From the NCBI GenBank assembly GCA_023391415.1, contig JAEWAY010000010.1, positions 8,363 to 72,362 on the forward strand: a DNA stretch of 64,000 bases. The letters are read 5' to 3'. Of the stretch, positions 24,115-37,903 are shown piece after piece (within the stretch, counting starts at the first letter, position 1; every line of letters begins with the position of its first letter). The notes beneath the pieces are model-generated. The model saw only the letters and a list, made by a program, of their open reading frames with translations. It had not been told where the DNA came from and did no database searches. Position numbers and translations under genes: made by a program. Origin of the DNA: Bacteroidota bacterium (lineage in GTDB: Bacteria; Bacteroidota; Bacteroidia; Cytophagales; Cytophagaceae).

Positions 24115-24999
24115 ATGTCGGTTCCTATCGAAAAATTTGAAAACCCAGGTATTCAAAACCCTGCCTTTTCCATTCTCATTCCCTCATGGAACAACTTGCC
24201 CTACTTACGGAATTGTATAACTTCAATAGAAAAGAATTCTCACTTAAAACATCAAATTATCGTCATTATCAATGAAGGCCGGGATGGGACCTTGGAATGG
24301 GTCCGGAGTCAGGGATACGACTATGTGTACTCCACAAACAACATAGGCATCTGTTATGGGCTAAACATGAGCAGAAGCCTGGTAAAAGCCAGGTATATAT
24401 TGTATATCAACGACGACATGTATACGGCGCCCGACTGGGATCTGCCCTTGTACGAAGAAGCCGTGAAGATAGGGAATCCTTACTTCATGCTTTCCGGCAC
24501 CATGGTGGAGCACACGGATACGGGAAATCCCTGCGTCCGGGTCGCCGACTTTGGCAGGGATTGGGATACATTCAGGGAAGACGAGTTTCTCGCGGCGATA
24601 CCCGACTTATATAAAGCGGACTGGACAGGCGCTTCCTGGCCTCCCACCCTGCTCCATACCGATCTATGGGATATGGTAGGCGGCATGAGTATTGAATATT
24701 CTCCCGGCATGTATTCCGACCCGGATTTGAGCATGAAATGCTATCAGGCGGGTACGCGGATATTCAAAGGTATAGGACGGTCACTGGTATATCATTTTGG
24801 CAGCAAGTCTACCAGCAAACTAAAAAAACCCAATACAGGCCGCGCCGTATTTTTGGCCAAGTGGAGAATCTCGGCCAATACCTTTTATAAAAAAATCTTG
24901 CGTATGGGCACGGACTACAGACCCATCCCGGATCAGGATATCAAACAGTTATCGAATGGCGTAGCTAGCAGACTCAAACGAATCAAAAATCAGCTTTAG
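24115..24999 (+). CDS. glycosyltransferase family 2
   Basis: N-terminal GT-A pattern (FSILIPSWNNLPYLRNCITS, DDD-like NDDM). Confidence 0.8.
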   Translation: MSVPIEKFENPGIQNPAFSILIPSWNNLPYLRNCITSIEKNSHLKHQIIVIINEGRDGTLEWVRSQGYDYVYSTNNIGICYGLNMSRSLVKARYILYINDDMYTAPDWDLPLYEEAVKIGNPYFMLSGTMVEHTDTGNPCVRVADFGRDWDTFREDEFLAAIPDLYKADWTGASWPPTLLHTDLWDMVGGMSIEYSPGMYSDPDLSMKCYQAGTRIFKGIGRSLVYHFGSKSTSKLKKPNTGRAVFLAKWRISANTFYKKILRMGTDYRPIPDQDIKQLSNGVASRLKRIKNQL

Positions 25000-25080: not shown

Positions 25081-28000
25081 GTTGTGATTTGCTTTCATTC
25101 ATTGAAATACTGAGATTTACTACAACCACCTGCCAAGATTTATCCCCTCTGTAATAGTTGTGATTTGCTTTCATTCATTGAAATACTGAGATTTACTACA
25201 ACTGATTGCAGCTACGACATACACGACATTATGTTGTGATTTGCTTTCATTCATTGAAATACTGAGATTTACTACAACAAGAACTCGACACTCCGGATCC
25301 TTGCCCAAGTTGTGATTTGCTTTCATTCATTGAAATACTGAGATTTACTACAACCTAAAAATTAATCCCCCTGCAAATCACCGGTTGTGATTTGCTTTCA
25401 TTCATTGAAATACTGAGATTTACTACAACGCCAGGCTCGATTTCAATATCAAGACCGGAGTTGTGATTTGCTTTCATTCATTGAAATACTGAGATTTACT
25501 ACAACTATATTAAGTGTACCGCCTAACTGGCCATAGTTGTGATTTGCTTTCATTCATTGAAATACTGAGATTTACTACAACCTTTTTTTATACTTCCGGT
25601 ATTTGCTTAGAGTTGTGATTTGCTTTCATTCATTGAAATACTGAGATTTACTACAACATAGTTAAAGGATATCCGGACAATACATTGTTGTGATTTGCTT
25701 TCATTCATTGAAATACTGAGATTTACTACAACGTAGTATCAAGCATATGATCAATTCGCTCCGTTGTGATTTGCTTTCATTCATTGAAATACTGAGATTT
25801 ACTACAACACTATCCGAGTGACTGAAAGTATCTTCCTAGTTGTGATTTGCTTTCATTCATTGAAATACTGAGATTTACTACAACTTGCATACGGTAAACT
25901 TTGTTGTTATTGTAAGTTGTGATTTGCTTTCATTCATTGAAATACTGAGATTTACTACAACTAAAAACCCTTGATTTTACAAGGGTTTTCGGTTGTGATT
26001 TGCTTTCATTCATTGAAATACTGAGATTTACTACAACAGTTGACGAGCGTATTAAAGTCGCGTTGTCGTTGTGATTTGCTTTCATTCATTGAAATACTGA
26101 GATTTACTACAACCAGATGGAAAACGCCTGTCTACATATCCAAGTTGTGATTTGCTTTCATTCATTGAAATACTGAGATTTACTACAACGCCGTGGCAAT
26201 CGCCCCAACTCCTGTATTGGTTGTGATTTGCTTTCATTCATTGAAATACTGAGATTTACTACAACACAACAGAATCCCCTCTTTATCGGGCAACAGTTGT
26301 GATTTGCTTTCATTCATTGAAATACTGAGATTTACTACAACATAGAAAGTAAAATTATCGTCTTCTTGCTGGTTGTGATTTGCTTTCATTCATTGAAATA
26401 CTGAGATTTACTACAACCGGAGTCAGGTACATGGTTGAGTGTCTTTAGTTGTGATTTGCTTTCATTCATTGAAATACTGAGATTTACTACAACCCAATTT
26501 GGGGTATACCGACTCGGATCTAGGTTGTGATTTGCTTTCATTCATTGAAATACTGAGATTTACTACAACACAGTTACACAATGAACAACTACAGATGTAG
26601 TTGTGATTTGCTTTCATTCATTGAAATACTGAGATTTACTACAACACTGATGATCTATGAATTACTTAGACTACGGTTGTGATTTGCTTTCATTCATTGA
26701 AATACTGAGATTTACTACAACAAATCTTGGAATTCGCGGAGAGTTTAGGCGGTTGTGATTTGCTTTCATTCATTGAAATACTGAGATTTACTACAACTGT
26801 AATCTCCCGCGGAGAAAGTTCCATGAGGTTGTGATTTGCTTTCATTCATTGAAATACTGAGATTTACTACAACAAATCTTGGAATTCGCGGAGAGTTTAG
26901 GAGGTTGTGATTTGCTTTCATTCATTGAAATACTGAGATTTACTACAACTTGCTTCCAGAAAACGCGACCAAGGAGTAGTTGTGATTTGCTTTCATTCAT
27001 TGAAATACTGAGATTTACTACAACAGCATTCTCCGTTTTGGTCGCAGCCTCGCCGTTGTGATTTGCTTTCATTCATTGAAATACTGAGATTTACTACAAC
27101 CTTTCTGCAATACCTCAAGCATTGCTTTAGTTGTGATTTGCTTTCATTCATTGAAATACTGAGATTTACTACAACTCAACCGGGGATTGAAACACCGGGG
27201 CAACAGTTGTGATTTGCTTTCATTCATTGAAATACTGAGATTTACTACAACGGCGAAGTTTGGCGGAGCAATCATAATAGGTTGTGATTTGCTTTCATTC
27301 ATTGAAATACTGAGATTTACTACAACCTGATGAGCTAACTACTCATCGAATTTTAAGTTGTGATTTGCTTTCATTCATTGAAATACTGAGATTTACTACA
27401 ACGAAGAAACTCAGGTGGAGACATGGCCGCCAGTTGTGATTTGCTTTCATTCATTGAAATACTGAGATTTACTACAACGGTAGCGGATTGTTCGCTGATC
27501 CCCGTTAGTTGTGATTTGCTTTCATTCATTGAAATACTGAGATTTACTACAACTTATGAGCATAAGGACGGTGGCAAGTGACAGTTGTGATTTGCTTTCA
27601 TTCATTGAAATACTGAGATTTACTACAACTGGCTGGTTTTTTCCATTATGGATACATTAGTTGTGATTTGCTTTCATTCATTGAAATACTGAGATTTACT
27701 ACAACTCCCTGTAGTATGTCAAGTCTATTAATTGCAGTTGTGATTTGCTTTCATTCATTGAAATACTGAGATTTACTACAACAGTAAAAATGGATTTTAA
27801 AACATTACCAAGGTTGTGATTTGCTTTCATTCATTGAAATACTGAGATTTACTACAACAGTAAATCGCTTTTCAATCAAATCCTTTGTGTTGTGATTTGC
27901 TTTCATTCATTGAAATACTGAGATTTACTACAACTTCTTTCCAAAATCGCCAACGCTCTCGGAAGTTGTGATTTGCTTTCATTCATTGAAATACTGAGAT

Positions 28001-28690
28001 TTACTACAACCCGAGGTTAGCGTTTCTTTTCATTCCGTTAGTTGTGATTTGCTTTCATTCATTGAAATACTGAGATTTACTACAACCATCAGCCGCCCAT
28101 ATCCGGTAATCGGTTGAGTTGTGATTTGCTTTCATTCATTGAAATACTGAGATTTACTACAACAAAAAACTAGCTGAATGGATGCAGGAAGGGTTGTGAT
28201 TTGCTTTCATTCATTGAAATACTGAGATTTACTACAACTGATGAGCTAACTACTCATCGAATTTTAAGTTGTGATTTGCTTTCATTCATTGAAATACTGA
28301 GATTTACTACAACTCCCTGAATATTTACGTTTCTAATTATCTGTTGTGATTTGCTTTCATTCATTGAAATACTGAGATTTACTACAACAGTCGATGCGAG
28401 CAATTCTAGCTTTACTAGTTGTGATTTGCTTTCATTCATTGAAATACTGAGATTTACTACAACTAGCTTTCAATTCGCTTCGCTTCGATCAGGGTTGTGA
28501 TTTGCTTTCATTCATTGAAATACTGAGATTTACTACAACTTTCTATCCCTTGGAGAAAAGGAGTATGAAGTTGTGATTTGCTTTCATTCATTGAAATACT
28601 GAGATTTACTACAACCATATGATTATGTTCAAAGCTAGTTGCTAGTTGTGATTTGCTTTCATTCATTGAAATACTGAGATTTACTACAAC
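25081..28690 (+). CRISPR. CRISPR array 1: 48 identical 46-nt repeats and 47 spacers of 29-31 nt
   Basis: I counted repeat starts one by one from 25081, 25157, 25233 through 28570 and 28645. Repeat is GTTGTGATTTGCTTTCATTCATTGAAATACTGAGATTTACTACAAC. Strand is assigned from anti-repeat complementarity (see the tracrRNA feature). Confidence 0.97.
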
Positions 28691-30243: not shown

Positions 30244-33200
30244 TTATATGTCAACAGTCTCTTCTGTCTTATCCACCATATTGCTTCTCAATACATTTAC
30301 AGGTCGTACATTGCCAAGCCGGTCGATATGTACTTTGATGCAACAGGCTTTGATCATCCGCTCTTCATCAAAGCCTTTGTCACTATTACCCCACGGCCGC
30401 TCAGACTTGTTATTCGAACCAAGCTCTTTGGTATCTATGATCGGTCGCGCTATATGAGCCGGAGCAAAGAAACACTGTCCTTTGTTGGAGCTTTTCATAA
30501 TATACAGACGCTCCACTATCTTCTTTTTGTCTGTCCAGTCAATTTGTGCCACATCTTCATCAGCGGTCGGCACATAAACAGTATCGCCCGGCGACAGTAT
30601 GATGTATCCGGCATCCGGATTTTGATCATGAACAGGCAATTTTTTGGCAAGGCGTGGTATCACCTCCAAAAATGGCGGAGTTGAGTATTTTCTTACCACT
30701 TGAAGCTCTCCAGTTTTTTTATTCTCTTCCTGAACGATTTCTATGACAAAATACTGATTAACTCCCTTGTCTCCATCAAGTAGCTTATTATCCAATTCGA
30801 TTTTGTCACCGCCTTCTTTGCGCGAAATTTTATTGATCGGAAATGGCGACAATCTAAGCAACTGTTCGAGCCCTTCCCCTTTAAACGCCTTTTTGGGATC
30901 ATTATCATAATTTGCCAGATGTTCACGCAATAGCTTTGGAAGCCAGTTATTGGCATGATGCGCATTGGGTAGATTTTCTATTTTGTCAATTGTAAATGAA
31001 TCGTCTATAGCAACCCGCTTGGATGCGTACTTCCTGAATTGCATCATATCTAGTTTATCCAGTACCTGTCCTGTACCTTCATCAAACACCGGATTGGATC
31101 GCAAATAGGTCAAAACCGCTTTCAAATCATGATTGTACCTGACAATAATGCTGCTGATTGTTCTGCGCAAGCTGGTTTTGGCAATACGCCAGTCTTCCGA
31201 CTTCCAGATATTTCCGGATTGAATAAACTCCGATTGTGTCTTGACCGCTTTGCTCAGATCGACATTCTTTTTGTATTCCGGCAGGTATATTCTGCCCAAT
31301 GGCTGCCCAAACAGCGATTGCCGCACAGCCACCCAATATTTGTCATCGGATACAGGAGCGGATTGCAATTCAAGTACCTTTTTCCATTGTCCCTCCACTT
31401 GTTTCCAGCGCCAGTATCGGTTCGTTGTCGGACTCACCAATCGGGACGATGGCTTGTAAGACACCGCTACCCGCTCCAGATGCTCTCTGACATTTTTAAA
31501 AAATATTCCGTCATTCTCAGTACCCCAGGGTGGAGCAAACTCTGTCATACCAATTGTCTCTCCCCGTAGTTCTTTCTCTTTTTTGAGCAAGTATTTCCAT
31601 TTTTTCCAATAAGTATACCGCTCATTGTCGGCCGGATCATTGCTAAAAGAACTAAGTGAGTTGAGATATTGGATATGCCTGCGGGTGGTACAGGCTACTA
31701 TGAGACCATCAAGGGCCTGATGCCTGTGATCAATACGCTTGTAATCTTTCGCAAAATGAATATCCTTCCGCTTATCTGGATTATCTATGATCAGTTGTTC
31801 GCCCGTAAGACGTTGCAGACGCTCAAAACGAGGCCGGACCAGCTCTTTCCATAACTTATGCAAGCCCCATTTATACTTAAGATCAGAAGTTATGGCACCA
31901 TTAGTATATACAATACCATCATTCGTTTCATTCCCTTTGGCTACCGGACGCAGAAACTGCGCTATTGTGCGGGCCAGGTAGCGGGTATCGTTTAGCTGGC
32001 GCTCTACAAAGTCTTCCGGTATTTCACTAAGTTTAAGATATCTGCGTTTCTTTTTGGAAAAGATGGCATCTACATTTTTCAGGTACGTCTCCATATCCAA
32101 TACTTTTGCCTCACCATCACGCCCCTGCATATCTTCAATAAACTGTATGGCGGTGCGATTGCCTTTGATTGCGTTGACTTTGGCCTCTACAATTACCTTA
32201 TTTCCAATTGAGTCATCATAAAAGCGACTCCGGGGCAATATATGATCAATCTGGTATTTTTCTGTAAAAAGATCACTAAGCTTGATCGGTTTGCCAGTAT
32301 AAGGCGAACGATAGCCCTGCTCTGCCCAAAGCTTGTATTTTTCAATGTCCGCATTGCTTACAAACTCCGCTTTATTGGTTTTGAATATCGATTCAAACTG
32401 CTCTTCCGCCTGGCGACCTCCATTTTCTTTCCATAGACGGAACCGATCCTGATCTGCCGGAGAATCCGGGTTGGCCTGCGGGCACCGAAGCTCTCTCAGT
32501 AAGGCTTCGATACGCGCTCTTTCAAGCCGGTTTTTCATATTATAGGTGAAGTCATCCTTCCGCTGCTTATTGTTTTTGCGAAGCTCACGCCCCAGCTCCA
32601 CGTGTATATAGTCTGGCCGACCCAAAGCGGGATCCTGCCATATATCCCTGACCAGATTGAGAGCTTCGCGTACCAGTTTTTCTACAACGGGATTGCGCAT
32701 GGAGTTGTATGGGACCAGCTCCCGGATACGCAGATCGGCCACGCTATCGTATTTATGCTCATTGGCAGGCTCGCTGTGTCGTCCGTAAGCTACATAACAG
32801 GCTGTGGTGACAGATAAGCCTTGAAAATCGGTGAGCGAATAAAGATTTTCTTTCTGCACATGCCTACGCGCCACATCAGAAATTGATGTCCCGTCTTCAC
32901 CATCAATAAACAACTCAATCCGGCTTCTAAGATCTATAGCTGGTTGCAGACTATAGCCTTTTTGTCCTTTGGCTTTGGGATACAGACCTTCTTCGCACCA
33001 GTACCTGCCGGTACGCATGAGGGGCAAAAGGTTGTTGAGCGCTCTTACAGAGTATGCGGCATACTCGCTTTTAAAAGCCGGCAGACTCGCCAGATGCTTT
33101 ATCAGAGGCTGAGGAAAATCAAAATACTTTGTGTTGGATAAAGCGGATTCTATATCTTTCTTTTCGGGCAGAGAATATAGGACATGCCAAAGCTGATGCA

Positions 33201-34869
33201 GCCTGTGCGGGTCGGCAAGTAGTGCTTCGCCCTGCTGTTGAAAGCTGTGTTTTCGAAACACTTTGCGAAAGAGCGCTTTGGTCTGATTGCCCGGAAAGGA
33301 TGTATCTTCCGGATAATTGAGCCGGACAGGATATGTTTTGCCGTCGGCCTCCAACCTGTTCTTTTTAAAACCCAGATGCTGCAATATAGCATCGCAGGTT
33401 ACCTCCGCGCTCTGGTCAAAAAGTTCGAACAAGCGCTCTTTGGCCTCGGTAGTAAGATGCTCACCAGAATCATTGGAGCTGTTTTGTTGCCTTCTACCAA
33501 CCTGTTTTTCTTTGTCGTGAATACGTAAGTTGTGAATGGTCTGCCAAATTCTGAACTCCTGAAACAAGGGATGACTTTTGGGCGCTACTTTTATTCCGGC
33601 TGAACATTGTACACCATCCTTGTCCAGATAGGTTCTGGATTCGTAGCGGCAATTGGCAAGCAAACCCTTCTGAGACTTGAGACCTCGCTGATAGTATATA
33701 ATATCGTTGCGAAAAATATGGTATAGATCTCTTGATCTGATCTCTTTATTTTTTTGCCGGTTGTGTACATAAAATGCGTCTGCTATGGCATCGATGTTGG
33801 TACGATCAGCAAATATGTCTTTATAGTACCGCTCCTGACATTGCCAGATCGCGTCCATTTCTTTCTGATAAAAAGACCGGTCTACGATACGCTCTCTGAT
33901 ACGATAGTTGCGGTCTTGCCGCAACTGCTGCAAATAATATTCCGACAGGTGCAGCGAGGTACGGTTTACGTCTTTTTCAAGTGCTTCTTTGCGATTTTGC
34001 CAGTCGGCCGGATCTACTTCGGCTACTGTGTAGCTGACTTCTCCTGATTTGGTTGTCTTGCGGGAGATGGTCAGCTCCAGATCCTTGCCCTTCCAGTCCG
34101 GAGCCTGCCGTCTTCTCTGTATTACTTCAAAAGACAGCTCTCCTGCTCTACAGTGCAGCTTGAAAAAGTTTTGATCTTTGTTTTTTCCCTGTGCAGGGCC
34201 CAGATCTTCAATATCCTGTATATGGACGATCTCGATCCATTTTTCGGTTATAGGGTACTTCACTGAGTCGGATTCCTGGTCGCTCTCTGCCTGGATCTGG
34301 TCCTTGCGACTGCTCCTGAAGCCCCGACGCTGATTGTAATGATAAAGTACACGGGCAAGTTCAGTCAGGCTGATTTGCTCTCTAAGAGCTTTGGCCTTGA
34401 GATAATAGATTATCCAGTCTTCGGGTATTTCGTATTGCTCTCCCTGTGCGTTGAGCTGACCGGTAATTTCAAAATAATCGGCCACCTCCCGCCTCAAATC
34501 ATCGGAATAAGGCAGGTAGGATTTGATAGTATGATTGGGATTTTTCTTAAAATCTTCAGGAAATTCCGGCGACAGCCAACCCAATATCTTAAAGGCTCTG
34601 ATAAGACGTGTACGACGTAGCTTGTAGCGGTGATTGAGACGGCGGGCGCCACGGGCCAGACGGCGGGCTGCGGCTTTTGACTCGGGTGTGCCCGACTCAA
34701 ACTTGCTGAGCGCATCGCCCTCCATAGGAATAATACGGCTGCCCAGGCGCAGTATGCGACCTTGCAGCTTCGCAGGCTCGTTATCATCATAGATATTGCT
34801 CTCTATCATGGCCCAACCAATAGAATTGGTACCGAGGTCCAAGCCAAGTATTCTTTTCATATCGGACAT
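30244..34869 (-). CDS. cas9: Cas9 (type II-C-like, 1541 aa)
   Basis: RuvC-I GLDLGTNSIGWA, an Arg-rich bridge helix AAARRLARGARRLNHRYKLRRTR, HNH DHILPRSRFYDDSIGNKVIVEAKVNAIKGNRTA, RuvC-III DHRHQALDGLIV. cas1 and cas2 follow. Confidence 0.95.
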   Translation of the reverse strand: MSDMKRILGLDLGTNSIGWAMIESNIYDDNEPAKLQGRILRLGSRIIPMEGDALSKFESGTPESKAAARRLARGARRLNHRYKLRRTRLIRAFKILGWLSPEFPEDFKKNPNHTIKSYLPYSDDLRREVADYFEITGQLNAQGEQYEIPEDWIIYYLKAKALREQISLTELARVLYHYNQRRGFRSSRKDQIQAESDQESDSVKYPITEKWIEIVHIQDIEDLGPAQGKNKDQNFFKLHCRAGELSFEVIQRRRQAPDWKGKDLELTISRKTTKSGEVSYTVAEVDPADWQNRKEALEKDVNRTSLHLSEYYLQQLRQDRNYRIRERIVDRSFYQKEMDAIWQCQERYYKDIFADRTNIDAIADAFYVHNRQKNKEIRSRDLYHIFRNDIIYYQRGLKSQKGLLANCRYESRTYLDKDGVQCSAGIKVAPKSHPLFQEFRIWQTIHNLRIHDKEKQVGRRQQNSSNDSGEHLTTEAKERLFELFDQSAEVTCDAILQHLGFKKNRLEADGKTYPVRLNYPEDTSFPGNQTKALFRKVFRKHSFQQQGEALLADPHRLHQLWHVLYSLPEKKDIESALSNTKYFDFPQPLIKHLASLPAFKSEYAAYSVRALNNLLPLMRTGRYWCEEGLYPKAKGQKGYSLQPAIDLRSRIELFIDGEDGTSISDVARRHVQKENLYSLTDFQGLSVTTACYVAYGRHSEPANEHKYDSVADLRIRELVPYNSMRNPVVEKLVREALNLVRDIWQDPALGRPDYIHVELGRELRKNNKQRKDDFTYNMKNRLERARIEALLRELRCPQANPDSPADQDRFRLWKENGGRQAEEQFESIFKTNKAEFVSNADIEKYKLWAEQGYRSPYTGKPIKLSDLFTEKYQIDHILPRSRFYDDSIGNKVIVEAKVNAIKGNRTAIQFIEDMQGRDGEAKVLDMETYLKNVDAIFSKKKRRYLKLSEIPEDFVERQLNDTRYLARTIAQFLRPVAKGNETNDGIVYTNGAITSDLKYKWGLHKLWKELVRPRFERLQRLTGEQLIIDNPDKRKDIHFAKDYKRIDHRHQALDGLIVACTTRRHIQYLNSLSSFSNDPADNERYTYWKKWKYLLKKEKELRGETIGMTEFAPPWGTENDGIFFKNVREHLERVAVSYKPSSRLVSPTTNRYWRWKQVEGQWKKVLELQSAPVSDDKYWVAVRQSLFGQPLGRIYLPEYKKNVDLSKAVKTQSEFIQSGNIWKSEDWRIAKTSLRRTISSIIVRYNHDLKAVLTYLRSNPVFDEGTGQVLDKLDMMQFRKYASKRVAIDDSFTIDKIENLPNAHHANNWLPKLLREHLANYDNDPKKAFKGEGLEQLLRLSPFPINKISRKEGGDKIELDNKLLDGDKGVNQYFVIEIVQEENKKTGELQVVRKYSTPPFLEVIPRLAKKLPVHDQNPDAGYIILSPGDTVYVPTADEDVAQIDWTDKKKIVERLYIMKSSNKGQCFFAPAHIARPIIDTKELGSNNKSERPWGNSDKGFDEERMIKACCIKVHIDRLGNVRPVNVLRSNMVDKTEETVDI

Positions 34870-34910
34870 AAGGTTGAAATGTTAAATTATCTAAAAAAGC
34901 ACCTGATGAA

Positions 34911-34933
34911 GATAAATTAAAGCAAATCACAAC
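34911..34933. other. orphan repeat/anti-repeat element in the cas9 upstream region
   Basis: Plus strand 34919-34933 reads AAAGCAAATCACAAC, the exact reverse complement of repeat positions 1-15. On the cas9 strand this reads GTTGTGATTTGCTTT, 50-64 nt upstream of the cas9 ATG. Confidence 0.5.
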
Positions 34934-35493
34934 ACAAGTCTTTTCCAACATTCTTCCAAGTTGTTATAGATTTGTTATTGGCTTCTCACCAGGCGCCAGT
35001 ATTCTCAGCTGATCATCCGTATATCCAAAAATGCAAAGGTCGATAATCCCTATTATAGAACAAAATCAGGACAGTGAAACTTACTCAACAGTATCAACGT
35101 CACCTTCTATATCTGCCATTCTTTATTATTTCTATTAGTTGATCATATGATCTATTTCGATTAGATCCAGTCTTCCCCAAAGACACATTCAGCCGAATCG
35201 ATATAGTGCCTTTTTTCACTAACTTTATCAATATAAAAATAAACAAAAGATTTGTAGAAATATTAAAAATAGAAGGATCAAATAAATGTAGTTGCTGCAT
35301 CCACTTGTGTTTTTAATGAGAACACAATTTTATCAAAAGATTTGTAGAAATACAAATTTTAAACATTGCCAACCTTAGATTCTCCCTTATCCTCCAATTC
35401 TCATTTGTTTATCTCTTTGAGCCTGCAACGACAAAGTTCATATATGAAATAACATCCTTACCTTATATTGATAGCACACGAAAAAATATAGAC

Positions 35494-35618
35494 AAAAAAA
35501 CGCCCCGATAAAATCGAGGCGGCCCCGATGATGTCGAGACACATATCGAATCACTACGGAATGATCCTTATTGTGATTTGCTGATTGAAAGGTAGTGTAT
35601 TTTATACATTTATACAAC
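35494..35618 (-). ncRNA. candidate tracrRNA
   Basis: Parts of the minus-strand RNA in order:
- Anti-repeat ...CCUUUCAAUCAGCAAAUCACAAU.
- AAGG plus a small GGA-UCAU-UCC nexus-like hairpin.
- A 9-bp hairpin GUGAUUCGA...UCGA(C)AUCAU.
- A terminator hairpin CGCCUCGAU-UUU-AUCGGGGCG followed by U7.
The anti-repeat pairs with repeat nt 1-13 and with the AUUGAAA segment of array 1. Confidence 0.6.
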
Positions 35619-35633
35619 CCCTAGGTCTGATTT

Positions 35634-35951
35634 TTAGCTTTTTGTCTGAGACATACTACTGACCTTGTATTGCAACAGCTCGTTGTACAGCTCTAGTGTC
35701 ATGGTCTTGAGGTTTTCAAAAAATACGGGCAGCGGCACCTCCACCAAGCGCTCTATGGTCTGGTGATAGCGCTGGTAAAGCTCATCGCTGCGCTGCTCGC
35801 GCCCAAAACCCATCAGCTCCAGCACCTGCCGGTCGAGATCGGTATAAAAATCGTCGGCTGTAAATCCGGCCTTTTCCAGACCGTACAAAAGTTTTGAATT
35901 TTTGAGGTCCGCTCGTAAAAGTGAGAGAATTAATTCCTTTGGATATTCCAT
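35634..35951 (-). CDS. hypothetical small helical acidic protein (105 aa)
   Basis: Clean ORF ending 15 nt upstream of the tracrRNA candidate. No recognisable family. Confidence 0.5.
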   Translation of the reverse strand: MEYPKELILSLLRADLKNSKLLYGLEKAGFTADDFYTDLDRQVLELMGFGREQRSDELYQRYHQTIERLVEVPLPVFFENLKTMTLELYNELLQYKVSSMSQTKS

Positions 35952-36261
35952 AATCTTTGGATTAAAAGTTTAACTATCCAAAGATAAACGATACAAAAAA
36001 CACTGTTTTTCAAGGTTTTTTTAACCAAAACGATATATAATTTAGCTAATCCGATATTTAAATTAACTGATTCTATATTTTTTAGCTCAGATAAAAAATA
36101 ATGACTTTTTTTCCACAACCCCTTCTCTTTTTGCTAACTTCATTCTGCTAATTAGTGAGATTTACTACAACTTACAACTTCCTCCCCAGAGTTCCTTGCA
36201 GTTGTGATTTGCTTTCATACAGCTTCCTACATGTTGCTTTTGAAAAAACTGGAAACAATTT

Positions 36262-36285
36262 ATATGTACAGATTGTTGTACATAT
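36262..36285 (+). promoter_or_regulatory. putative YefM-YoeB operator (paired TGTACA hexamers)
   Basis: ATATGTACA-gattgt-TGTACATAT. The TGTACA cores are at 36265-36270 and 36277-36282, 12 bp centre to centre and about 50 nt upstream of yefM. E. coli yefM-yoeB operators use TGTACA-core palindromes. Confidence 0.55.
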
Positions 36286-36331
36286 GATGATAATTAATTA
36301 AATTGAATCAGTTAATTGATCCCAGAATATT

Positions 36332-36586
36332 ATGGAAGTAACAACATACACCAATTTAAGACAGCATCTGAAGGCATATCTGGACAAGGTAGTAAAACAA
36401 CATACGCCTCTGTTTGTGACAAGATCAGGCAGTGAGGAAGTAGTAATACTCTCCAAATCTGATTTTGAAAGTATGCAAGAGACCTTCTACCTCCTGCAAT
36501 CGCCGGCAAACGCGGTCAGGCTGCACCGGGCTTTGCAAGAATACAAAGAGGGTAAAGGCACTAAAAGGAATCTGATAGAAGAGTAA
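36332..36586 (+). CDS. yefM: type II antitoxin, Phd/YefM family
   Basis: 84 aa. MEVTTYTNLRQHLKAYLDKV...PLFVTRSG...VVILS...ETFYLL is the classic YefM pattern. Confidence 0.9.
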   Translation: MEVTTYTNLRQHLKAYLDKVVKQHTPLFVTRSGSEEVVILSKSDFESMQETFYLLQSPANAVRLHRALQEYKEGKGTKRNLIEE

Positions 36587-36588
36587 AT

Positions 36589-36843
36589 ATGGACATTGTT
36601 TTTTCGTCCGACGCATGGGACGATTATTTATATTGGCAGGAACATGACAAAAAAATGTTGAAAAAAATCAACGCTCTGATTAAGGAAATAGAAAGAACCC
36701 CCTTTGAAGGATCTGGCAAACCAGAGCCGTTAAAACACGCTCTGGCCGGGTGCTGGTCGAGAAGAATTAATCTTGAGCATCGACTCGTGTATCAGTTTGA
36801 TGACAGTGCTGTTTTTATTCTGCAATGCAGATACCATTATTAG
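36589..36843 (+). CDS. yoeB: type II toxin, YoeB/Txe family mRNA interferase
   Basis: 84 aa. AWDDYLYWQEHDKKMLKKINALIKEIERTPFEGSGKPEPLKHALAGCWSRRINLEHRLVY...RYHY is near-canonical YoeB. It starts 2 nt after the yefM stop. Confidence 0.9.
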   Translation: MDIVFSSDAWDDYLYWQEHDKKMLKKINALIKEIERTPFEGSGKPEPLKHALAGCWSRRINLEHRLVYQFDDSAVFILQCRYHY

Positions 36844-37903
36844 ATTGATTTACTACAACAATAGCTCTCGAAGAGTTAGAGAGTTTTTGTTGTGATTTGC
36901 TTTCATTCTGCTAATTAGTGAGATTTACTACAACAGGGTTCCGCATTCTGAAACATATAGTTCGTTGTGATTTGCTTTCATTCTGCCAATTAGTGAGATT
37001 TACTACAACTTTAAATAAAGTTTAACTAACTTTATGTTGTTGTGATTTGCTTTCATTCTGTCAATTAGTGAGATTTACTACAACTAAAATAAAGATCAGT
37101 AGGGTTCTGAACAGGTTGTGATTTGCTTTCATTCTGCCAATTAGTGAGATTTACTACAACTCAAATCCTTCACATAGGGTTAATTATGTTGTGATTTGCT
37201 TTCATTCTGCCAATTAGTGAGATTTACTACAACGGAATCGATTCAACCGACTGGTTATTGTATGTTGTGATTTGCTTTCATTCTGCCAATTAGTGAGATT
37301 TACTACAACCAATTTACTGGGAAGCCCATCATTTCCCCGTTGTGATTTGCTTTCATTCTGCCAATTAGTGAGATTTACTACAACAGATGTCCGATTAATA
37401 TTACTTTATTAACGTTGTGATTTGCTTTCATTCTGCCAATTAGTGAGATTTACTACAACGATTTCTTAAAACGTTGAATCGCTCGTAAGTTGTGATTTGC
37501 TTTCATTCTGCCAATTAGTGAGATTTACTACAACGATTGATGATAAGGCGGTCACTATGCCTTCGTTGTGATTTGCTTTCATTCTGCCAATTAGTGAGAT
37601 TTACTACAACACTATACTTCATTTTCCTTGAATTTTATTGTTGTGATTTGCTTTCATTCTGCCAATTAGTGAGATTTACTACAACTCGCCAATAATTTGG
37701 TACACCTTTTTCCCGGTTGTGATTTGCTTTCATTCTGCCAATTAGTGAGATTTACTACAACCTAGGTCTCTCTAGTTGGCTTCTTTACAAGGGTTTATTG
37801 CCAATATCAAGATCAGAAAACGGAGGCAAAACACCACCCATGTCAAAAAAGTAAGCCGGTTTTTGAAATCCTGTGACTCTATAAATACAGCGGTGGTGGT
37901 GTA

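Follow-up and report, generated by a model that had tools for sequence, protein, structure and literature searches.

Autoregulation of Cas9 by guide-like RNAs is established in type II-A CRISPR systems, with tracr-L in 2021 and the scaRNAs (small CRISPR-associated RNAs) of a 2026 preprint, and it has just been reported for type II-C. In S. pyogenes, tracr-L, the long form of the trans-activating CRISPR RNA (tracrRNA), is a natural single-guide RNA that represses the cas9 promoter, Pcas9, via an 11-nt match (Workman et al. 2021; bioRxiv 10.1101/2020.05.21.102756). The preprint of June 2026 (bioRxiv 10.64898/2026.06.01.729453) describes “Cas9-regulating scaRNAs,” each consisting of a repeat-like unit and a short guide. 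Three locations are given for them, namely the cas9 5′ untranslated region (UTR), a position downstream of the array, and one upstream of the tracrRNA, which is the tracr-L arrangement, and their targets lie at the transcription start site (TSS) or in the −35 region; tracr-L is reported there for type II-C too. An earlier survey of repeat units outside arrays (Shmakov et al. 2023; PMC10120712) required matches of at least 16 bp and set type II systems aside because of their tracrRNA, such that a 15-nt core like the one described here would probably have escaped it. We consider a type II-C locus within 64,000 nt of DNA from a Bacteroidota bacterium (GCA_023391415.1, contig JAEWAY010000010.1, positions 8,363 to 72,362; hereafter “the window”), where a lone copy of the first 15 nt of the CRISPR repeat lies between the tracrRNA gene and cas9. 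On balance, we favor the view that this copy is the tracrRNA-pairing core of a Cas9-regulating scaRNA, a CRISPR RNA (crRNA)-like molecule through which Cas9 would repress itself. The best reading of the surrounding element is that it is scaRNA-like, with a logic akin to that of tracr-L.

How does this locus compare with the described systems? First, as in the type II-A scaRNAs of Lactobacillus hominis and Gemella morbillorum (bioRxiv 10.64898/2026.06.01.729453), there is a solitary repeat-like segment able to pair with tracrRNA, a putative guide of ~11 nt directly 5′ of the repeat unit, and a location in the cas9 5′ region. The type II-A targets are at the −35 region or TSS of the promoter that drives both cas9 and the scaRNA; their counterparts in the window would be the candidate sites described below. 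Unlike the type II-A scaRNAs, the window element comes from Bacteroidota, from a type II-C locus whose Cas9 has 1541 aa; its putative guide and repeat unit are clamped in a conserved long-range helix of 10–13 bp with a U tract, and it has two tandem copies of the candidate target, with one seed mismatch. Second, autorepression via an 11-nt promoter-directed guide, as by tracr-L, is the same logic that we propose for the window element. In tracr-L, however, the repeat-like unit is directly 5′ of the anti-repeat in the same transcript, whereas the window has its unit ~560 nt beyond the terminator of the tracrRNA, on the 3′ side, which implies pairing in trans or across a long read-through transcript rather than in a compact hairpin. 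In two relatives, as in tracr-L, a repeat-like unit does precede the tracrRNA on its 5′ side and shares its strand, separated from the anti-repeat by a 12-nt loop (locus L026) or a 45-nt gap (lineage G002). Third, the scaRNAs of Francisella novicida (II-B) and Neisseria meningitidis (II-C; PMC13431127) are likewise degenerate-repeat small RNAs of type II loci that serve gene regulation by Cas9. Those RNAs act on non-cas genes, a lipoprotein operon and efeUOB, respectively, with the meningococcal RNA binding Cas9 without tracrRNA, whereas the only plausible target of the window element is its own locus. Fourth, the solitary units and mini-arrays of Shmakov et al. and the CreR-type cas-regulating RNAs likewise combine an off-array repeat with a spacer-like flank that matches a cas promoter. 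Mini-arrays have two repeats flanking a spacer, whereas model and pattern searches of the window element find one unit only. The sequence-only reading, an earlier description of this DNA, had regarded a repeat copy in a cas9 leader as different from the precedents that it named, the long-form tracrRNA of S. pyogenes and the Francisella scaRNA, a comparison that the cas9 5′-UTR scaRNAs of the preprint have overtaken. Hence, the element fits a known kind of RNA; what is new is its occurrence in a Bacteroidota type II-C system, together with features of its own: a clamp helix that covaries and is followed by a U tract, a candidate operator in two copies, and, in this genome, a seed with a mismatch.

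The array repeat reads GTTGTGATTTGCTTTT, and its nt 1–15 are GTTGTGATTTGCTTT. There are 62 exact copies of this 15-mer in the window, against a chance expectation of 0.27 per window with up to 2 mismatches allowed. Of these, 61 belong to array 1 (25081-28690) and array 2 (36128-37761), where they are repeats on the plus strand; the sole inverted copy is on the minus (cas9) strand at 34933->34919. The sequence-only reading had described plus-strand 34919-34933 as the exact complement of repeat nt 1–15, with weaker matching back to ~34911, about 50 nt upstream of the cas9 start, and had placed a tracrRNA at 35.5 kb. These statements hold. The 15-nt copy is perfect; repeat nt 16–23 agree with the element at 5 of 8 positions; the copy lies 50 nt from the first in-frame cas9 ATG (34869) and 59 nt from the second (34860); and the tracrRNA is real, on the minus strand, with both an anti-repeat and a terminator. 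ATG 34860 is the more likely cas9 start because the N-terminus shared with relatives, MKRILGLDLG, begins there. Over the full repeat, the element is identical at 30 of 46 positions (15 of 31 beyond nt 15; fixed-register p ~0.02), and in every lineage identity stops at nt 13–15. There is also a weak likeness to the repeat 3′ end 26 nt upstream of the core (10/15 by eye). An Rfam scan found nothing at the element, its only match being a weak CRISPR-DR hit in array 2. The parts of the locus on which the argument rests are as follows.

30244..34869, minus strand: cas9, 1541 aa, probable start ATG 34860
34893..34996, minus strand: whole scaRNA-like element, ~104 nt, comprising the P1 5′ arm, P2, pseudo-guide, core, P1 3′ arm and T6
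34985..34996, minus strand: P1 5′ arm, GCGCCTGGTGAG, predicted to pair with 34911-34899
34946..34963, minus strand: P2 inner hairpin, CAAC-UUGGAAGAAU-GUUG, from predicted folds
34934..34953, minus strand: pseudo-guide of 20 nt, GAATGTTGGAAAAGACTTGT, adjoining the core on its 5′ side
34919..34933, minus strand: repeat-like core, GTTGTGATTTGCTTT, the first 13 nt of which (34933->34921) complement the tracrRNA anti-repeat
34899..34911, minus strand: P1 3′ arm, CTTCATCAGGTGC, from fold and covariation
34893..34898, minus strand: T6 tract directly after P1, terminator- or attenuator-like as read from the sequence
35493..35612, minus strand: tracrRNA gene, the putative pairing partner, with anti-repeat, nexus AAGGATCATTCC and terminator

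The element shares its strand with both cas9 and the tracrRNA, and its solitary tracrRNA-complementary segment sits between them, outside the arrays. The first 13 nt of the core, GUUGUGAUUUGCU, are predicted to form 13 contiguous base pairs (−17.8 kcal/mol) with the anti-repeat AGCAAATCACAAT at 35582->35570, the same helix that a genuine repeat forms; the tracrRNA terminator follows at 35521-35501. Prediction of a full-length duplex between element and tracrRNA gave unrealistically long pairings, and the 13-bp core helix alone was used. On the minus strand, the RNA fold of the element is −29.1 kcal/mol (z −3.1). Its outer helix, P1 (11–13 bp in the window), encloses ~75 nt, within which the P2 hairpin (34963-34946) is followed by a linker and then the core (34933-34919); the T6 tract comes after P1. 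Together, P1 and T6 are terminator- or attenuator-like and are conserved, although the stem spans ~75 nt and a simple terminator scan made no call. By eye, the P1 3′ arm is similar to ATCGGGGCGTTTTTTT, which makes up the 3′ half of the terminator of the local tracrRNA.

Homologous elements were found in four further lineages.

L010:3749-3867: lineage G001, the metagenome-assembled genome “Bacteroidetes bacterium OH_PBB_18,” same genus, with a Cas9 of 95% identity and the core 190 nt upstream of cas9
L011:1697-1819: lineage L011, a metagenome contig, Cas9 97% identical, core ~740 nt upstream of cas9, past an insertion sequence (IS)-like insert
L013:2370-2468: lineage L013, a Logan contig, Cas9 57% identical, core 72 nt from the ATG, as in the window
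L018:1595->1501: lineage G002, same genus, different Cas9, strand opposite cas9, directly 5′ of the tracrRNA

A covariance model, R1, trained on four of the five element sequences, gives 108 bits for the window element, which is its single match in the genome, 102 for L013, 101 for L011, 99 for G001 and 34.7 for G002. Covariation in P1 was scored on a model-guided alignment of the five sequences, with 500 shuffles and controls in which the partner was slid by 1–3 columns. All 10 pairs are formed in all five lineages (100%), and 8 of the 10 have changed on both sides; none of the 500 shuffles reached these values, and sliding the partner reduced pairing to 32–47%. Covariation in P2 is weaker (75% paired), and hairpins with similar loops (UUGACGAAU, UUAUCGAAU) occupy its position in G001 and L011. 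Each of the five lineages has a U tract after P1. The 13-nt core, GTTGTGATTTGCT, is identical in four lineages and has one mismatch in the fifth, G002 (GTTGTGAATTGCTTTAAACTC); the invariant 13 nt are exactly those that form the continuous helix with the anti-repeat. G001 and L011, in which the tracrRNA is ~98% identical, have the same layout as the window. The ~570 nt between tracrRNA and cas9 cannot be aligned with the window in either, yet both carry GTTGTGATTTGCT in a like clamp. In G002, the tracrRNA is divergent from cas9, which encodes a 1446-aa protein (in the identical contigs L029/L030). Across all five lineages, the element is on the tracrRNA strand, whereas its distance from cas9 and its orientation relative to cas9 differ. 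This suggests an RNA that acts with the tracrRNA and speaks against a constant component of the core promoter or leader of cas9.

Several observations concern the surroundings of the element in these and other loci. In L011, the insert between element and cas9 (L011:1830-2370, ~540 nt) has transposase-like coding potential, and the element beside it is intact. A block, GACATTACAGG, and after it a hairpin with loop UCAU(N)A are conserved ~55 nt 5′ of P1 in three lineages (L011:1632-1690, L010:3681-3745, L013:2307-2365), not in the window; the block suggests a longer primary transcript of ~190–215 nt. Most loci with a Cas9 55–58% identical to that of the window have a tracrRNA co-oriented with cas9. 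In these, the terminator of the tracrRNA lies 10–45 nt before the ATG (L012:2400-2503, L014:2395-2503, L015:2400-2503, L019:2410-2503, L020:2400-2503), which implies that cas9 expression there would depend either on read-through of that terminator or on a promoter within the gene for the tracrRNA. More distant relatives (Cas9 37% identity) have a divergent tracrRNA adjoining cas9. Further contigs yielded merely identical copies of the G000, G001 and G002 types.

The structural data bear on which strand is used. The plus strand of the element reads AAAGCAAATCACAAC, a perfect anti-repeat, and the distant relatives L003, L005 and L006 have a divergent tracrRNA at this position; the sequence-only reading had accordingly offered a second tracrRNA or anti-repeat RNA, transcribed from the plus strand and divergent from cas9, as one possibility. 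It had itself seen no convincing hairpins or terminator downstream, and none were found, nor was a nexus. Moreover, the plus-strand fold is weak (−19.7 kcal/mol, z −1.4 to −2.3), there is no Rfam match, and on that strand the five G-U or U-G cells of P1 would turn into A-C mismatches. The helix, the G-U pairs, the U tract and the lower fold energies all favor the strand of the tracrRNA, so we find a plus-strand tracrRNA scarcely credible. The related idea of a relic of an ancestral divergent tracrRNA was rejected: the helix encloses the core, unlike in any tracrRNA, and the structure favors the other strand.

The variable position of the element bears on a second possibility, namely that it is a decayed full repeat with an internal promoter (TTTG at nt 8–11 and a −7-like box at about nt 32–39) that drives cas9. 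The 30/46 match to the full repeat can be read this way, and the array repeat does contain TTTG, 20 nt and then GAGATTTA, in keeping with Bacteroidetes promoter spacing. However, the same register in the window reads GTGCTTTT, which lacks the consensus TA, and the fragment is 190 nt from cas9 in G001, 740 nt away in L011, and points away from cas9 in G002. A repeat-derived promoter is thus very improbable.

If the element is a scaRNA, what would its guide recognize? The nucleotides 5′ of the core were taken as a crRNA-like guide, and each locus was searched for matches proximal to a protospacer adjacent motif (PAM), with per-locus p values from control 11-mers taken in the same regions. Promoter calls rest on the consensus motif. 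The candidate sites and boxes are listed below.

35228..35235, minus strand: −7-like box TATATTGA, candidate promoter of the element and cas9, 8 nt downstream of site B
35244..35261, minus strand: candidate target site B, reading an ATTTCT flank and ACAAATCTTTTG; the protospacer strand, plus, reads CAAAAGATTTGT followed by AGAAAT
35334..35351, minus strand: candidate target site A, second copy of a 19-bp direct repeat, with guide match
35360->35353: −7-like box AAAATTTG, preceding site A
L010:3626-3635 and L011:1571-1580: guide matches of 9/10 in G001 and L011 (p 0.08 for L011)
L013:2237-2247, opposite strand: exact guide match of 11/11 in L013 (p = 0.026)
85-nt gap between element and cas9 in G002: exact guide match of 10/10 (p 0.09)
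~40–50 nt upstream of the divergent cas9 ATG in L026, which has a third Cas9 type: exact guide match of 11/11 (p = 0.010)

In the window, a perfect 19-bp direct repeat (35244-35262 and 35334-35352) contains the best pseudo-guide match and the AGAAAT flank. The two targets, with plus as the protospacer strand (35255-35244 and 35345-35334), each match at 10 of 11 positions (10/12; p 0.105). Combined over loci by Fisher's method, p is ~6e-4. In a guide-by-target matrix, cognate pairs along the diagonal match at 9–11 of 12 positions, and cross-lineage pairs at 2–8; the last guide base covaries with the target base, being C in G001 and A in L011. The 3′ flank AGAAAT, which occurs ~3 times per 1620 positions, is common to both window sites, G001 and L011, loci with Cas9 proteins at least 95% identical. 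On the strand of the element, every candidate target precedes a −7 box by 8–16 nt and the box points at the element, and in G001, L011 and L013 the distance from target to core is 191–194 nt. The box is a perfect Bacteroidetes-type TAnnTTTG in L011, L013, G002 and L026, where such boxes number 0–3 per strand per locus. In the window, TATATTGA has the same spacing as the perfect box TATGTTTG of L011, and a predicted sigma-70-like promoter, TCTACA-17-TATATT, overlaps site B and coincides with TATATTGA. Elsewhere in the 3.7-Mb genome, the seed of the window guide finds no match of at least 12 nt; a chromosomal target elsewhere was rejected, the five 11-nt matches being at about chance level.

These matches also bear on whether the element functions at all. 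It could be a non-functional relic, a repeat fragment left by recombination among arrays, tracrRNA and cas9 in a hairpin conserved only as a terminator. The locus is a recombination mosaic, the distribution of the element is narrow, the guide match and −7 box of the window are imperfect, and Shmakov et al. (PMC10120712) deemed most solitary type II repeat units spurious. A relic, however, would not be expected to retain, over five or six lineages, a cognate match with a promoter close by, or a fixed strand relation to the tracrRNA, and the 13 invariant nucleotides coincide with the tracrRNA-pairing segment while their surroundings have diverged beyond alignment. We consider a relic unlikely.

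How might a scaRNA of this kind work? The observations to be joined are the identity of the core, the strand-specific covarying structure, the co-orientation with the tracrRNA, and the cognate guide-promoter complementarity across lineages. For transcription, transcript ends, Cas9 loading, the PAM and repression, we infer the following sequence of events. A promoter ~0.3 kb upstream (~35260-35225, minus strand; possibly another near 35355) would drive a transcript through the element toward cas9. P1 and the U tract would terminate or attenuate a share of the transcripts, with read-through feeding cas9. The 13-nt core would pair with the anti-repeat as a crRNA repeat does, and the duplex would be loaded by Cas9. 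The 10–12 nt directly 5′ of the core would be a truncated guide, too short for cleavage, that brings Cas9 to the two 19-bp direct repeats overlapping the −33 region of the same promoter. Bound there, Cas9 would repress its own transcript and that of its regulator. The mismatch and weak −7 box in the window may mean weaker feedback or early decay.

An RNA from the cas9 strand with GUUGUGAUUUGCU that pairs with the tracrRNA had also been proposed by the sequence-only reading, and in outline this stands. Less favored are a mere RNase III-sensitive leader and a DNA docking site; a guide-like scaRNA is preferred because in relatives the element lies 140–690 nt from cas9 or on the opposite strand, is co-oriented with the tracrRNA, and has a 5′ flank that matches a nearby promoter. 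In its fullest form, the leader explanation is a cis-acting attenuator: tracrRNA would pair with the nascent core and trigger RNase III cleavage or alter the P1/U-tract terminator, without DNA guiding, and Cas9 output would follow free tracrRNA. In the window and L013, P1 and the U tract stop 28–36 nt before the cas9 ATG, leaving little room for a separate promoter, and related loci have at the same position a tracrRNA terminator, which the P1 3′ arm resembles. On the other hand, the gap between element and cas9 is 140 nt in G001 and ~690 nt in L011, beyond the IS-like insert, and in G002 the element is on the strand opposite cas9. The cognate guide-promoter matches would also be left unexplained. 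A cis-acting leader is therefore, in our judgment, decidedly unlikely.

Several findings weigh against the scaRNA reading itself. First, the window guide is mismatched at seed position 5, and its match alone is not significant (p ~0.1–0.2). Second, TATATTGA is degenerate: of the 6 positions that TAnnTTTG specifies, it agrees with the consensus at only 4. Third, the single protospacer flank recovered (ATG...) disagrees with AGA at positions 2–3; the searches for protospacers that could reveal the PAM otherwise gave only chance matches (array 1 against cultured phages), no match (three spacers against IMG/VR), or only an overlap with another array (self-genome BLAST). Fourth, when folded by itself, the element is predicted to have partial pairing at the ends of its core, with a mean unpaired probability of 0.43. 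Fifth, the known element lineages number five, and two of them are close relatives. The sequence-only reading had proposed conservation upstream of cas9 orthologues as a check; homologues in four lineages have kept P1 and the core, and the element is absent from six other loci with a Cas9 55–58% identical to that of the window, where the tracrRNA terminator stands 10–45 nt ahead of the ATG of cas9. In a family-wide scan of 41 genomes, it occurred in the source genus alone, and an order sample of 401 genomes added none beyond G001.

What are the implications if the scaRNA reading is correct? First, through this locus and its relatives, the principle of Cas9 autoregulation would also cover large Bacteroidota Cas9 enzymes. 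Second, the loci would provide natural variants for tuning of feedback, with perfect or mismatched seeds, one or two operators, and three positions relative to the tracrRNA. Third, the relation between guide, target and flank offers a route to inferring the PAM of an uncharacterized Cas9. Fourth, the loci lend support to the idea of an origin of tracr-L from a scaRNA cassette that has landed upstream of a tracrRNA. Window-type loci, G002 and L026 have three different Cas9 proteins and one repeat/tracrRNA family. A more tentative proposal, which we regard as possible but doubtful, is that a promoter with its own target, a truncated guide, a 13-nt core and a terminator-like clamp form a portable autoregulatory cassette with three landing places in one Bacteroidota genus: the cas9 leader downstream of the tracrRNA (window, G001, L011, L013), 5′ of a divergent tracrRNA (G002), and a compact single-guide RNA (L026). 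Such a cassette would represent a natural series of scaRNA to tracr-L conversion, and its clamp helix could double as an attenuator that couples cas9 read-through to scaRNA production.

Other observations concern the neighborhood of the element and the related loci. An open reading frame (ORF) of 105 aa (35634-35951, minus strand) lies between array 2 and the tracrRNA, and its place beside the tracrRNA is conserved at loci that have three different Cas9 types. This orphan is restricted to the genus and lacks a Pfam match; it forms a single 90%-identity cluster among 5.8 billion protein clusters, and the members of this cluster lead only to identical copies of the G000, G001 and G002 types and to L026. 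In L026 (L026:1388-1535, minus strand, and L026:1684-1694), the third Cas9 type (1383 aa) is found beside the same orphan, ORF106. A repeat-like 14-mer, GTTGCGATTTGCTT, lies 12 nt 5′ of the L026 anti-repeat and gives a natural single-guide RNA fold (z −4.7); with this predicted fold, it is an analogue of tracr-L within a type II-C locus of Bacteroidota. A 66-aa ORF at 35100-35300 in the window looks spurious, with no family match, and was rejected.

The arrays have features of their own. Spacer 3 of array 1 (25279-25308) matches, at 29 of 30 nt, a spacer of a different array (contig C5, ~24685-24713) that has a 30-nt repeat, GCTTTAATCGTACCATGTTGGAATTGAAAT; C5 carries 106 copies of this repeat, C21 carries 55 beyond the window, and C2 carries 2. 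This overlap indicates that two CRISPR systems took overlapping pieces of the same invader. The G001 arrays (L010:961-1007, L010:10141-10193) share the leader-like sequence AAGTGTCTGTAGCAAAGCTAACTAGTGAG at the ...CTACAAC end of the repeat and have degenerate repeats at the other end, which indicates that the acquisition end is on the downstream side with respect to crRNA transcription, in the direction that the tracrRNA implies for it. Lastly, a yefM-yoeB-like cassette splits one repeat of array 2 in the window (36128-36215, 36845-36859).

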